Of a DNA stretch of 64,000 bases, positions 1,340 through 46,132 are shown in pieces. Position 1 is the stretch's first letter. Each line of letters opens with the position of its first letter. Both the position numbers and the translations under genes were made by a program. The notes beneath the pieces are model-generated. The model was given only the letters and a program-made list of their open reading frames with translations. It searched no databases and was not told the DNA's origin. The DNA is from a bacterium (GTDB lineage: Bacteria > UBA8248): NCBI GenBank assembly GCA_963692865.2, contig OY843592.1, positions 832,001 to 896,000 on the forward strand, in the 5' to 3' direction.

Positions 1340-1905
1340 TCCATGAATCGAAGGGGCGGTTCGAGAACGGTCCCTGCAAAACCCGCAAACCCTACCAATT
1401 GCCGATATGCGCGCGGAGTAGGGACAACCCCTCCTCGGGGTTGTCCTGCCCCCGTGGTTGTCCCTTGCAGAACGCACCATCGGACAGGCACGGGGGCCTG
1501 TCCCTACAAACGAGAGAAGGTCTTGATCGTCATTCCGGCCTTGAGCCGGAATCGATTTGCGGGTGCGGGTGAATGAACGACGGCGTTTCAATTCCCGCCG
1601 ATGTGCGGGAATCCTGACGAAAGGCAAAAGACATAAAATGGATTCCGGCTCAAGGCCGGAATGACGGCAATCCTGGCAATCCAGGGTTTTCAACAGTTCC
1701 TTGAGGGTTGCCGGCAACTGATGAAGAAGGAAGAATCATTCCCCCCTTGAGGGGGTCGGGCTTCCCGAGGGGAAAGCCCGACAGAGGCCGAGCGGTTTGT
1801 GCGAAGGCCGATGTGGTGGGGGACATACCACAGGGTAAAATCTCCCCCCACCAGTTCGCTTTCGGGCTTACGCCTTCAGCTCACTGTCGGCCTTCCCGAG
1901 GAGGA
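1340..1905. repeat. Intergenic cluster of nested palindromic repeats
   Basis: GTAGGGAC-type palindromes at 1418-1446 and 1481-1506; inverted CGTCATTCCGGC...GCCGGAAT pair at 1528-1553 and 1641-1667; CCCCCCTTGAGGGGG element from 1740. Confidence 0.8.
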
Positions 1906-2023
1906 AAGATGGGGTAATCGGGTTGGTCTGCGAACTACCGCGTGTGGCGGATGTTCCTCTGCCTTATGATTCGAGGCGAGGCCGGGATGGTCCGGTCTCT
2001 ACGCGCCCGCAGGAGGAGCAGTC

Positions 2024-3064
2024 ATGAACTACTTTGCAGGACTCGACGTGTCGTTGGAGTGGACGAGTGTGTGCGTGGTGGACGCGGAGGGCGGGATCGT
2101 CCGGGAGGCGAAGGTCGCGAGCGAACCCGCGGCCCTCGTGGCGTTCTTCACCGGACTGGCCTTCGGCGTAACGCGCATCTGCCTGGAGGCGGGGCCGCTG
2201 TCACAGTGGCTCCATGACGGTCTGGCCGAGGCCGGGTTCCCGGTGGTTTGCGCCGAGACGCGGCAACTGAAGGCGGTGCTCTCGGCGACGGTGAACAAGA
2301 GCGACCGCGACGACGCGCGCGGCATCGCCCAGTTGGTTCGCGCGAACCTGATTCGCCCGGTGCACGTGAAGACGGTGTCGAGCCAGGAAAAACGCATGCT
2401 CCTCGCCAACCGCAGGTTCATGCTGAAGCAGTTGTGCGACGCCGAGGCCCACATCCGGGGCACGCTGCGCAACTTCGGGCTGAAGATGGGCAAGGTCACC
2501 CGTCGCGGTTTGGAGGCGCGTGTAGGGTGTCTGGTCGCGGAGCGCCCGGAGTTGGCGCGCCTGGTGGCGCCGATGCTGCGGGCTCGCTCTGCGCTGCTGG
2601 CGGAATACGTCCGGCTGCACAGGATGATGCTGGAGGCGGCGCGAGCCGATCCGGTCTGCCGGCGCCTGATGACGGTTCCCGGCGTGGGTCCGGTGACGGC
2701 GCTCACCTTCCGGGCGAGCGTCGACGTGCCATCGCGTTTTGCGCGCTCGCGCTCGGTGGGCGCGCACTTCGGGCTTGTGCCTCGCAAATGGCAATCCGGA
2801 GAGGTCGACCGCACGGGAAGCATCTCCAAATGCGGCGACGCGATGATGCGCGCGGCGCTCTACGAAGCCGCCAACGTCTTGCTCGGGCGCACGACGCGGT
2901 GGTCATGGCTGAAAGCCTGGGCGATGGGTGTGGCGAAGCGTCGCGGCAAGTCGCGCGCGAAGGTTGCGCTCGCCCGCCGGCTCGGCGTCATCATGCACCG
3001 CATGTGGATGGATGGCAGTGAGTTCCGCTGGAAGCGCGACGGCGCGGATGCTTCGGCTGCCTGA
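2024..3064 (+). CDS. IS110-family DEDD transposase/recombinase
   Basis: YFAGLDVS...CLEAG...KSDRDDA (RuvC-like DEDD); TVPGVGPVTA and GLVPRKWQSG...ISKCGD (catalytic Ser domain); RBS AGGAGGAG. Confidence 0.95.
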   Translation: MNYFAGLDVSLEWTSVCVVDAEGGIVREAKVASEPAALVAFFTGLAFGVTRICLEAGPLSQWLHDGLAEAGFPVVCAETRQLKAVLSATVNKSDRDDARGIAQLVRANLIRPVHVKTVSSQEKRMLLANRRFMLKQLCDAEAHIRGTLRNFGLKMGKVTRRGLEARVGCLVAERPELARLVAPMLRARSALLAEYVRLHRMMLEAARADPVCRRLMTVPGVGPVTALTFRASVDVPSRFARSRSVGAHFGLVPRKWQSGEVDRTGSISKCGDAMMRAALYEAANVLLGRTTRWSWLKAWAMGVAKRRGKSRAKVALARRLGVIMHRMWMDGSEFRWKRDGADASAA

Positions 3065-3119
3065 GGTCGAGACACTGAAGAAGGAGGACCACAGACAAAC
3101 CCTGTAGCTTCCGCCTCGG

Positions 3120-3305
3120 CGGGGGATGCTCCCGTGGGGACGAGGGACGAAGTGAGTACGCTGTCGGCCTAGCCCCGCTGCGTCGGTGACGATGCGAGGG
3201 CGCAGGAAAGATTGTTCCACTTCGTTCTCCGATCCCATCCTGTTGACGGCCCCCGGCTCGGGAGTCGATCACGAAGAGAAGCGAGACCCCCATGGAGCGT
3301 CATCT
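3120..3305 (+). ncRNA. Predicted bridge RNA / seekRNA of the IS1111-type element
   Basis: Outer stem 3125-3139/3288-3301; target loop with GTCGGCCT (3163-3170) and AGGAAAG (3204-3210); donor loop with CCCATC (3234-3239) and AGAGAAG (3275-3281); boundaries approximate. Confidence 0.7.
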
Positions 3306-3492
3306 GCAGCCAAAGGCGGAACAGGTCTGACAGAACCAGGGGAGAGGAACTTGACTTGCCCTACCCGATTAGAGAAGGCCGACCCTCAAGGGGGGAGTGA
3401 TTTCCACTCTCGTCGGAAGGCAAGAACCCTCAAGGGGGGAGTGAATTTCTTCTCTACTCGGTCGGGTTCGGCCCCCCACCCGGAGTGCGCCC

Positions 3493-4281
3493 GTGAGCGA
3501 TACGATGGATTTCGATGAGCGCGCCTCGCGCCAGGCCGAGGTCATGTACCTGACGCCGGACTTGACCGAGGTGAGACGCCGGACGATAGAGGCGCTCGGT
3601 CTCACCTCCGGCGCGCGCGTCCTGGACGTGGGTTCCGGCCCCGGCCTCTTCGCCGACGAGATAGCGCAGACGGTCGGCCCGACGGGTTGCGTGCGCGGGG
3701 TGGATATCAGCGAGTCGATGATCGGGCTCGCCCGGGCGCGATGCGCCGATAAGCCCTGGGTCGACTTTCAAATCGCCGACGCCGTATCACTTCCCTTCGA
3801 AGATGAGTATTTCGACGCCTGCGTGAGCGTGCAGACGCTCGAGTTCGTGGCTGACTTGGATGCGGCCTTGCGCGAGATGCACCGCGTATTGAAGCCCGGT
3901 GGACGACTCGCGGTGAGCGACGCCGACTGGGGCGCCACGTCGTGGCGCTGTGAGGATGCGGCGCTCTGCGAGCGGGTGATGGCCAGCTGGCTTGCGGGCT
4001 TCGCCCACCTGAGGCTGCCGCTCACGCTCAAGCCCGGGATCGAGGCGGCGGGCTTCGCCGATGTTTCCGCCCGCGCGATCCCCGTTCTCAACACCGCCTG
4101 CGAACCCGAGAGCTTCAGTTTTCAATTCATTCGTCAGGTTCAGGGCGTCGTCCCCGCCAGGACGGACCTGACGCAAGAGGAAGTAGACGCATGGGCGAGT
4201 GAATTGCGCGGCCTGGACGAGAGGGGCGCATATTTTTTCTCGCAGACGAGATATCTGTTCTCAGCCGATAAGCCGCGCTGA
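3493..4281 (+). CDS. Class I SAM-dependent methyltransferase (UbiE/ArsM-like)
   Basis: VLDVGSGPG, GVDISESM, DAVSLPFEDEYFD, RVLKPGGRL. Confidence 0.9.
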   Translation: MSDTMDFDERASRQAEVMYLTPDLTEVRRRTIEALGLTSGARVLDVGSGPGLFADEIAQTVGPTGCVRGVDISESMIGLARARCADKPWVDFQIADAVSLPFEDEYFDACVSVQTLEFVADLDAALREMHRVLKPGGRLAVSDADWGATSWRCEDAALCERVMASWLAGFAHLRLPLTLKPGIEAAGFADVSARAIPVLNTACEPESFSFQFIRQVQGVVPARTDLTQEEVDAWASELRGLDERGAYFFSQTRYLFSADKPR

Positions 4282-36539: not shown

Positions 36540-37120
36540 GCCGCTCCGCCTCACCCTGAGTAGCGGCCCTTCGACAGGCCCAGGACAGGCTCCGCTGTCT
36601 CCCCACCTTCCTCACCCTGAGTAGCCGCCGAAGGTAAAACGCGACTGAGAAAGGAGCGTTTGTACCGAAGGGCGAAATTCGCGCTCGCCGGAGGGATGCC
36701 CCCATCCTTCGATACGGCGCTTACGCGCCTACTCAGGATGAGGGTTCGGGGCGCTTGCCCGGGATGAGGGCGTCAAGCGTTCCGCGAAGCCCGATGTCGC
36801 GCGGTGGTCGATTCCGACCGGTTTGCGCGAAGGCCGATTCGGTGGGGGGAGCTTTTTCTGTGGCATGTCCCCCCACCAACTCGCCTGCGGGCTTCGCCCT
36901 TGCCTCGTTGTCGGCCTTCCCGAGGAGGAAAGGTTTTTGTAGGGGCCGCATATCATGCGGCCCGCCTTGTGGAGGCGAAAATCAGGGTCGCATAATATGC
37001 CAGACATATATGTCTGACATACAAACAAATCGTCTCTCTCCGGCTTTTTCAACAGCCCCCTCATGGGGGGAGTGAAATTCGGCGTGTTCCTTCTGTGGAC
37101 TTTTTCAACAGCCCCGGATG
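36540..37120. repeat. Intergenic repeat cluster
   Basis: CTACTCAGG-type repeats, CCCCCCACC element, REPIN and MITE right end at 36939-37059. Confidence 0.8.
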
Positions 37121-42799: not shown

Positions 42800-43375
42800 C
42801 CGGGTGGTTGTTGAATAAGTCCCGGTAAATTAGGGTTCAACGCGACCGACGAGAACAAGAAAAACACTCCCCCCTTGAGGGGGAGTCAACGAGGCAAGGG
42901 CGTAGCCCGCAGGCGAGTTGGTGGTGGGGAGCTTTTTCAGTGGAATGTCCCCCCACCGAATCGGCCTTCGCACAATTCGCTCGGCCTCTTCGTCGGGCTT
43001 TCCCCTCGGGAAGCCCGACCCTCAACGGGTTGTTGAAAAAGCCTGTTTCACGAGCGGGCGGACACACAGGTCCGCCCCTACGCAAAACGAGATGGGGTTG
43101 TAGGGGCGGACCTGTGTGTCCGCCCGAATGGCCCGAAAGAACGAGGGCGGAGTGTAGGGGCCGCATACATGCGGCCCGTGTAGTGGGCGAAAAAAGGCCG
43201 GGACGCATATATGCGTCCCCTACACCCTCTCCTCAGAAGGACTTTTTCAACAGCCCCTCAAGGGGGGAGTTATTCTCTTCTCTCTCGTTGGCTGTCAATG
43301 CTGTACAAAGGTGAAGTCCGCAGCCACGCCAACGGTGGTCAACTCCGAGCGAGGAGGGACTTTTCAACAACCCCC
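42800..43375. repeat. Intergenic repeat cluster with a MITE nested in a CCCCCTTGAGGGGG element
   Basis: 42865-43025 is a reverse homologue of 1740-1900; GTTGTTGAAAAAG (43029) ... TTTTTCAACAGCCCC (about 43243-43257) encloses several GTAG palindromes. Confidence 0.8.
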
Positions 43376-45749: not shown

Positions 45750-46132
45750 GGAGTGTGCAAACACCACCCCTTCGGGGCTGTTGAAAAAGTTACGAATTCG
45801 AGATTCAGCACATGGAGCCGCCAAAGTAAGAAGGAGACAATACTCCCCCTGTGTAGAGCACTTAACAACCACTCCCCCCTTGAGGGTCTGGCTTCCCGAG
45901 GGGAAAGCCAGACGATGAAGCCGAGCGGTTTGTGCGAAGGCTGAATCGGTGGGGGGTGAATCGCGTTTTATTGCGTATTTCGAGTTATACCCCCCACCGG
46001 TTTGCTTGCGGGCTTGCGCCCTTAGCTCACCGACTCCCCCTCAAGGGGGGAGTGGTTCATCCCTACCCACACGGGGTTTTTCAACAACCCCCCTTCCGCC
46101 TGTTTTGATTCTTAGAGTTCCAGAATTGGTTT

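Follow-up and report, generated by a model that had tools for sequence, protein, structure and literature searches.

An apparently intact IS1111-group insertion sequence with a predicted two-loop bridge RNA and a hairpin target in a UBA8248 genome

The 64,000-nucleotide stretch of DNA analysed here (the window; GenBank assembly GCA_963692865.2, contig OY843592.1, positions 832,001 to 896,000 of the forward strand, from a bacterium of the lineage UBA8248) carries a mobile element at positions 1909-3377, which an earlier reading of the letters without database searches (hereafter the sequence-only reading) had described as an IS1111-type element with a readable bridge RNA aimed at a host repeat hairpin. 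Our analysis makes it very probable (roughly 0.92 by our own estimate) that this element is an intact, active or very recently active insertion sequence (IS) of the IS110 family and IS1111 group, whose recombinase is guided by an RNA that reads both target and donor with two loops. This reading is carried by identical copies of the element, by the family of its protein, by an RNA structure that persists through compensatory changes in relatives, and by guide words that change together with insertion sites and, in the few variant classes available, with element ends.

Boundaries and copies of the element

The proposed span holds in every respect. The genome carries six copies that are 100% identical across exactly positions 1-1469 of the element, their flanks diverge outside this span, and one contig from a DNA sequencing run skips exactly 1469 bases at the insertion site (1905 to 3375, with 3 ambiguous letters). 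The left junction reads ...GTCGGCCTTCCCGAGGAGGAAAG(1908)|ATGGGG(1909), the sequence directly before 1909 being ...GGAGGAAAG, and the right junction reads ...TTAGAGAAG(3377)|GCCGAC(3378-3383). The skipping contig has a depth of 37.9, versus 218.7 for the contig bearing the element, and its shorter side comprises only 21 letters; it fits either presence/absence variation or an empty paralogous repeat of a co-occurring strain.

1909-3377, + strand: complete insertion sequence, 1469 bp (basis: identical copies, flank divergence, skipping DNA contig)
1909-1914, + strand: left terminal extension ATGGGG, which would supply the right-hand side of the donor once the circle is joined; its reverse complement corresponds to the RNA word at 3232-3239
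1915-1923, + strand: left subterminal inverted repeat TAATCGGGT, reverse complement of 3363-3371, in an arrangement that recurs in relatives
3363-3371, + strand: right subterminal inverted repeat ACCCGATTA; the right extension GAGAAG comes next (3372-3377)

The subterminal repeats are perfect, 9 bp long and set 6 nt inward of each end, and relatives have repeats of 8-15 bp at the equivalent place. The non-coding ends measure 115 nt on the left and 313 nt on the right. That the element is intact, as had been proposed, agrees with all six copies, in which the frame stays open, free of internal stops, along the entire family match and the RNA is matched in intact form.

The recombinase

2024-3064, + strand: recombinase gene, 346 amino acids (aa), the sole long frame (basis: PF01548, PF02371 and NF033542 matches; alignment with IS621 and ISCro4 chains)

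The protein scores above the curated cut-offs of both Pfam domains (PF01548, 49 bits against 29; PF02371, 76 bits against 21.3) and of NF033542, 'IS110 family RNA-guided transposase' (237.2 bits against 140), and by its sequence it is a recombinase in which a DEDD RuvC-like domain is combined with a Tnp domain that bears a Ser-Gly motif. The candidates for catalysis are D8 (in GLD), E55 (CLEA), D94 and D97 (KSDRDDA) and S258 (GLVPRKWQSG, 250-259), positions described as catalytic for the family. These motifs line up with their counterparts in the solved IS621 and ISCro4 chains, the N-terminal alignment being weak when taken alone: against the IS621 chain only the C-terminal domain is significant, with domain E-values of 2.4e-11 versus 25 for the N-terminal part. 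Of named IS1111 members, tblastn retrieved IS5075 and IS4321 on plasmids, at only about 25-26% identity.

According to published reports, IS1111 members have subterminal inverted repeats of 7-17 bp (PMC11208160), proteins that are 330-350 aa long and bear the motif GL-P----S(t)G (PMC11187229), and seekRNAs in which the top-strand match stands 5' of the bottom-strand match (PMC11187229). Placement in this group is supported, on sequence grounds, by the same published marks of architecture, protein length and motif; the membership put forward by the sequence-only reading is supported to the extent that the protein exceeds the family cut-offs and is accompanied by subterminal repeats, a long right non-coding end and the GL-P----SG motif.

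The predicted guide RNA and its structure across relatives

The right non-coding end holds all four words that had been read there: GTCGGCCT at 3163-3170, AGGAAAG at 3204-3210, CCCATC at 3234-3239 and AGAGAAG at 3275-3281. None of 200,000 mononucleotide shuffles of the non-coding region contained the four in order, the single words turning up 1144, 4540, 12911 and 4345 times. The minimum-free-energy fold places the words on both sides of two internal loops, each enclosed by stems, and in the fold of 3100-3300 an outer stem (about 3125-3139 with 3288-3301) encloses the two stem-loops; the stem-enclosed loops proposed earlier are thus seen in the folds and are backed by the covariance model presented below.

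3124-3301, + strand: predicted bridge/seek RNA, an outer stem around target-binding and donor-binding stem-loops (basis: folds, covariance model R1, pair counts)
3163-3170, + strand: 5' guide of the target loop, GUCGGCCU, the complement of the top strand across core and right target (AG+GCCGAC)
3204-3210, + strand: target loop 3' guide AGGAAAG, equal to the top strand of left target and core, pairing with the bottom strand
3232-3239, + strand: 5' guide of the donor loop, AUCCCAUC, which can form 7 Watson-Crick pairs and 1 G-U pair with G+ATGGGGT of the left end
3275-3281, + strand: donor loop 3' guide AGAGAAG, equal to the right IS end and core

A further hairpin (CUUCCGCC ... GGCGGGGG, 3108-3125) lies directly 5' of the modelled RNA, and relatives show a CCGCC...GGCGG stem at that place; since it recurs in relatives, the RNA may begin further upstream. 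No Rfam family matches the non-coding end, and the sub-threshold matches, cold-seep-1 (20.2 bits, 125.8 needed) and whalefall-1 (16.5 bits, 37 needed), both fall in the host repeat to the left of the element.

A scan of one genome per species retrieved 52 related loci. The closest belong to metagenome-assembled genomes (MAGs) labelled Nitrospinota, with protein identities of 87-97%, and the more distant ones are mostly from Alphaproteobacteria, at about 42-79% identity for full-length matches. We adopted a covariance model (R1), built from seven close relatives and the fold structure of the window with pairs between guide words excluded, because a sequence-only alignment misplaces the 3' strands. 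R1 gave one match in 35 of the 38 sources searched, each on the strand of the gene and just 3' of it, in line with the earlier claim of an RNA downstream of the gene in the IS1111 style; in the genome of the window itself only the six copies of the element match. Paired cells reached 89.2%, versus 73.2% in shuffles and 37-52% in controls with slid partners. Covariation across homologues, proposed as a check on the fold, appears as compensatory changes in 35 of 50 pairs, both sides having changed, versus a mean of 24.3 in shuffles (0 of 500 reaching 35) and 9-15 in the slid controls. The frequent G-U pairs fit an RNA of the + strand and would be A-C on the opposite one. Relatives folded singly mostly show the same layout, as judged by eye and uncounted. 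The slid controls, together with these independent single folds, argue that the structural signal is real.

Target guides follow insertion sites

The ends of 24 relatives, which make 25 elements with that of the window, were set without the RNA by a rule of AG, a 6-nt extension, subterminal repeat ... repeat, and an extension ending in AG; two of them, L013 and L025, required extensions of 7 and 5 nt, and another (L043) was doubtful and later excluded. The core AG stands at the left target and at the right end in 24 of the 24 related elements with defined ends, and it is the sole constant part of their left flank. Sixteen representatives, one per guide/target class, were scored at 9 + 7 positions, this position-wise scoring having replaced an exact-word matrix, which overlooked elements that had a single mismatch or a G-U pair.

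In a fixed register the cognate pairings totalled 180 against a permuted mean of 109, and with one base of register freedom 211 out of 256 against 122.3; none of 100,000 permutations reached the cognate value in either case, and the cognate target was the single best one for 12 of the 16 representatives. The RNAs of close relatives differ from that of the window almost solely in the guide columns, and they do so in step with the flanks. Thus L009 and L010 have the words UGUCGGCUC and AUGAGAG at a target ...ATGAGAG|AGCCGACA, L013 has AUCCAGCCU and CGAAAG at ...CGAAAG|GCTGGAT, and L008 has ACGGAAG at ...ACGGAAG|. Right junctions outside the boundary setting also fit the 5' guide (9/9 positions in L016, 8/9 in L027, and all able to pair, one as G-U, in L046).

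Because relatives with 87-97% identical proteins carry different target-loop words matched to different sites, it is tempting to regard the lineage as a natural series of retargeting events on a near-constant recombinase and RNA scaffold, in which the copy number in the present genome would be capped by the supply of matching hairpins; we hold this idea tentatively, at somewhat less than even odds. The sequence-only reading also called the recombinase probably reprogrammable, a suggestion for which natural retargeting among these relatives is the one line of support, and this by comparison, not by experiment.

Some relatives show other patterns around the core. In a subgroup within L026-L032 (L026, L028, L029, L030 and L032) each of the two target guides has U where the core would be read, the words being ...GAAGUU and GGUCGUG or GGUCUUG, yet the flanks show AG; this may represent a deliberate core mismatch or another crossover point. 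The 5' target guide of L019, L045, L047 and L034/L042/L050 matches the right flank a few bases off the core and does not adjoin it; L034, L042 and L050 have broken genes, and the locus of L050 stops before its right end becomes readable. L036 has five letters fewer at the right junction than its near-twin L033 (...GGTTAG|ACCGGTTAAC versus ...GGTTAGAGAAG|ACCGGTTAAC).

The host repeat and the insertion sites in this genome

The element of the window lies in the second of two internal hairpins of a palindromic composite repeat with inverted ends CACTCCCCCCTTGAGGG ... CCCTCAAGGGGGGAGTG.

1733-1908, + strand: left portion of the composite repeat of the host, which measures about 190 bp in restored form; it contains the common hairpin (1755-1782) and, at 1886-1908, the left arm of the target hairpin (basis: six-copy flank alignment, blastn)
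1902-1908, + strand: AGGAAAG, made up of the left target and the core AG (1907-1908); the RNA word at 3204-3210 has the same letters
3378-3402, + strand: closing part of the composite repeat on the right (CCTCAAGGGGGGAGTGA), with the right target GCCGAC at 3378-3383

In a blastn search with the restored repeat the family occupies 117 merged loci of the genome, of which 36 reach 150 nt or more, and the window contains it at 1733-1908 with 3378-3402, 36814-36933, 42891-43046 and 45876-45959. The composite repeat is a candidate for a mobile element of the miniature inverted-repeat transposable element (MITE) kind or for a repeat of the repeated extragenic palindrome (REP) type.

The other copies had been expected at AGGAAAG|GCCGAC, which turned out to be so in part: 3 of the 6 copies occupy this exact site and one sits at AGGAAAG|ACCGAC, one base off, while of the remaining two one has a near-cognate site outside the repeat and the other an unrelated right flank. 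The former (L003; G000:C1:1823985-1825453, minus strand) is inserted at AGGGAAG|GTCGAT, where all 8 right positions pair if two G-T wobbles are allowed; this copy, just past a purine-rich stretch and 10 nt ahead of the start codon ATG of a small open reading frame (ORF) of about 64 aa, may separate this ORF from its ribosome-binding site. Across the restored junctions we found many chance frames, as the DNA is GC-rich, and only the small ORF beside L003 was notable. The description as a safe landing site does not hold absolutely.

The use of a dispersed repeat as such was read correctly, the site being more exactly a rarer variant hairpin within the composite repeat. The hairpins cited in support at 1755-1782, 42992-43019 and 45886-45913 are indeed present, but they have the common variant GGGAAAG|CCCGAC or a GCCAGAC form and not the target of the element, and none of the three holds an IS copy. 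The common variant, of which 37 intact examples exist in the genome, has two mismatches to the guides, differing at 2 of the 13 guide-read positions, one of which adjoins the core; the form at 45886 departs further. Not one empty copy of the restored 13-mer is left in the genome, where chance alone would yield 0.18, and 11 sites lie within one mismatch of it, three of them in repeats.

Alternative readings and contrary evidence

Several of our results weigh against the reading proposed here, and three alternatives draw on some of them. The alignment behind the pair counts was fitted to the model and so leans towards its structure, and RNAalifold, applied to a plain MAFFT alignment of 22 RNA regions, gave a weak consensus of 12 pairs at -3.13 kcal/mol. 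Nor does the fold energy stand out from that of shuffled sequences (z = -1.16, 15 of 100 being as good, and z = -1.37, 21 of 200). Three of the 16 representatives (L011, L012 and L040) match their own flanks poorly, and L017 ties with the similar target of L040; for L011 and L012, which lie on short MAG contigs, off-target insertion and chimeric assembly are for that reason inseparable. One copy in the genome of the window (L001; G000:C1:3895393-3896861, minus strand) joins the left half of the repeat (AGGGAAG) to the unrelated right flank CGCCCC..., which pairs at 4 of 8 guide positions by hand count and could reflect an adjacent deletion, a rearrangement or an off-target insertion. Contigs from two RNA runs cover only 2635-2904 of the gene, at 95-97% likeness, and some repeat flank, which widens the range to 90-97%, and do not extend to 3124-3301; a promoter scan of 1800-3500 returned no sigma-70-like promoter; and the circle junction was not seen among the contigs of the sequencing runs. 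Finally, the ends of L013 differ from its donor words at 2 + 2 positions, and in the broken copies L034 and L042 a change in the donor word (AGAUAAG) is unmirrored in the right end.

The reach of the RNA-run contigs would suit an explanation in which the words are features of the DNA without any RNA, either incomplete internal duplicates of the element's ends and its target repeat or sites of protein binding, as would the palindromic nature of the target, by which GTCGGCCT is at the same time the sequence of the left hairpin arm in the host. We consider this exceedingly improbable: where relatives have targets that are unrelated and not palindromic, words matching those targets still occupy the same loop columns, the stems remain paired through two-sided changes with G-U pairs of the orientation noted above, and RNA guidance in this family has been established experimentally in published work (PMC11208160, PMC11187229).

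That the RNA reads the donor as well is likely, though less firmly shown than that it reads the target. Most relatives share the ends ATGGGG and ...AGAGAAG together with the matching loop words, which leaves the comparison of guides with ends low in power. The donor words nevertheless change with variant ends in 4 of the 5 relatives that differ: L012 (end ATGGGA) has AUCCCAUC, fitting at 8/8 positions; L025 (ends ATCCCG and ...ACAGAAG) has ACAGGAUC and ACAGAAG; L035 (ends ATGAGG and ...AAAGAAG) has GCCUCAAC and AAAGAAG; and L040 (end CATGCG) has ACACAUGC. In L033 the best-scoring word lies outside the loop, the aligned loop word scoring 7/8 by manual reading of the alignment. It could therefore be supposed that the RNA guides only the choice of target, as a seekRNA with one functional loop, the protein recognising the ends through the subterminal repeats and the matches in the second loop being conserved for other reasons. 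The near invariance of donor words and ends would agree with this, as would covariation seen in few variant classes with margins of only 1-3 matches, the departures of L013, L034 and L042 from the rule, and the emphasis of the seekRNA report on target matches in RNAs of 82-96 nt, end recognition possibly differing in IS1111 (PMC11187229). On the other side stand the loop words of L025, L035, L040 and L012, which match their own variant ends, the geometry of the second loop, which equals that of the first and includes a helix (helix 7) with 7 of 10 pairs changed on both sides, and the donor-complementary loops that Durrant et al. describe in IS1111 members (PMC11208160). Taken together, we regard guidance of target choice only as very unlikely and retain two-loop reading of target and donor.

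A third possibility is that the element is a recent but now inactive relic, its copies being identical through recent spread or gene conversion. The missing promoter and circle junction can be read in this sense, and so can the lack of a perfect empty target site in the genome; against it speak the open frames and intact RNA matches of all six copies, the 11 near-cognate sites that remain within one mismatch, and the contig without exactly 1469 bases, which fits presence/absence variation but could also stem from a paralogous repeat of another strain. On balance this seems to us highly improbable, and an active or very recently active element remains our reading. A possible promoter element was also noted near the right end:

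3351-3356, + strand: -35-like TTGACT, which in the circle would stand 17 nt before GAAGAT spanning the joint (computed from the window)

TTGAC is conserved at the equivalent place in relatives, and a promoter formed at the circle junction from 3351-3377 joined to 1909-1914 is possible to judge by the letters. The combination of no promoter found in the integrated element with TTGACT ahead of the circle joint fits, weakly, an expression triggered by circle formation.

Proposed mechanism

By analogy with IS621, ISEc11 and their relatives, whose published study is the source of the circular intermediate, the RNA-protein binding and the strand-exchange chemistry assumed here, the element would be excised as a circle in which ...GAGAAG is joined to ATGGGG..., and an RNA from the 313-nt right end would guide the recombinase. 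In the target loop the 5' side would pair with the top strand (core AG and right target) and the 3' side with the bottom strand (left target and core); the donor loop would likewise read the joined ends of the circle, from the right end ...AGAGAAG to the left end ATGGGG.... The RNA would thereby hold donor and target together, and strand exchange at the AG core would insert the element between AGGAAAG and GCCGAC, a site in the right arm of the variant hairpin.

Significance and comparison with known systems

The element is a clean but expected example, and it leaves the picture of IS110/IS1111 unchanged; bridge RNAs had already been predicted in 93% of catalogued IS1111 elements (PMC11208160). 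What it adds is a bridge-RNA recombinase with clear boundaries, to all appearance intact, from a lineage that has been little studied, with four readable guide segments, close relatives that document a natural change of guide together with target, and a single genome that shows a tight tie to one repeat variant, with zero empty perfect sites versus 37 intact common variants at two mismatches. If the idea of a natural retargeting series is true, the recombinase would be a compact one, with an AG core and guides some 7 and 8 nt long, possibly able to function apart from the systems studied so far; its relatives would provide a ready-made panel of natural guide variants, and the element would be limited by its own supply of targets.

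The closest likeness is to the IS1111 members ISEc11, ISPa11, ISKpn4 and ISPst6 (Siddiquee et al. 2024, PMC11187229), which also have a long non-coding region downstream of the gene and subterminal repeats with short terminal extensions. The 346-aa protein falls in the size range of the ISEc11 group and carries its GL-P----SG motif, the top-strand match likewise stands 5' of the bottom-strand match, and each element or lineage has a target of its own (PMC11187229). The present element differs from the named IS1111 members by its low identity to IS5075 and IS4321, by its AG core and by its host group, the closest relatives being in MAGs labelled Nitrospinota and more distant ones in Alphaproteobacteria.

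With IS621 (Durrant et al. 2024, PMC11208160; structures 8wt6 and related) it shares the DEDD and Tnp recombinase, a presumed donor made of joined ends, two predicted loops with two guides each that would read both strands around a 2-nt core, and natural targets that are repetitive and palindromic. Unlike IS621, it has its RNA in the right end and not in the left, with the strand matches in the opposite order, longer subterminal repeats, AG in place of CT as the core, and an outer stem that encloses both loops (PMC11208160).

Palindromic repeats are known targets of such elements (PMC11208160, citing Tobes and Pareja 2006). Like the REP-targeting ISPpu9, ISPpu10 and ISPa11 (PMC11208160, PMC12288879), the element has several copies at one position of a repeated extragenic palindrome and a predicted RNA gene downstream of the transposase gene. 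It departs from ISPpu9, for which extra Ssr9 copies are reported (PMC12288879), in that R1 finds no solo RNA copies in this genome beyond the six copies of the element, and from the REP-targeting elements in general in that its target is a minor variant hairpin within a larger composite repeat.

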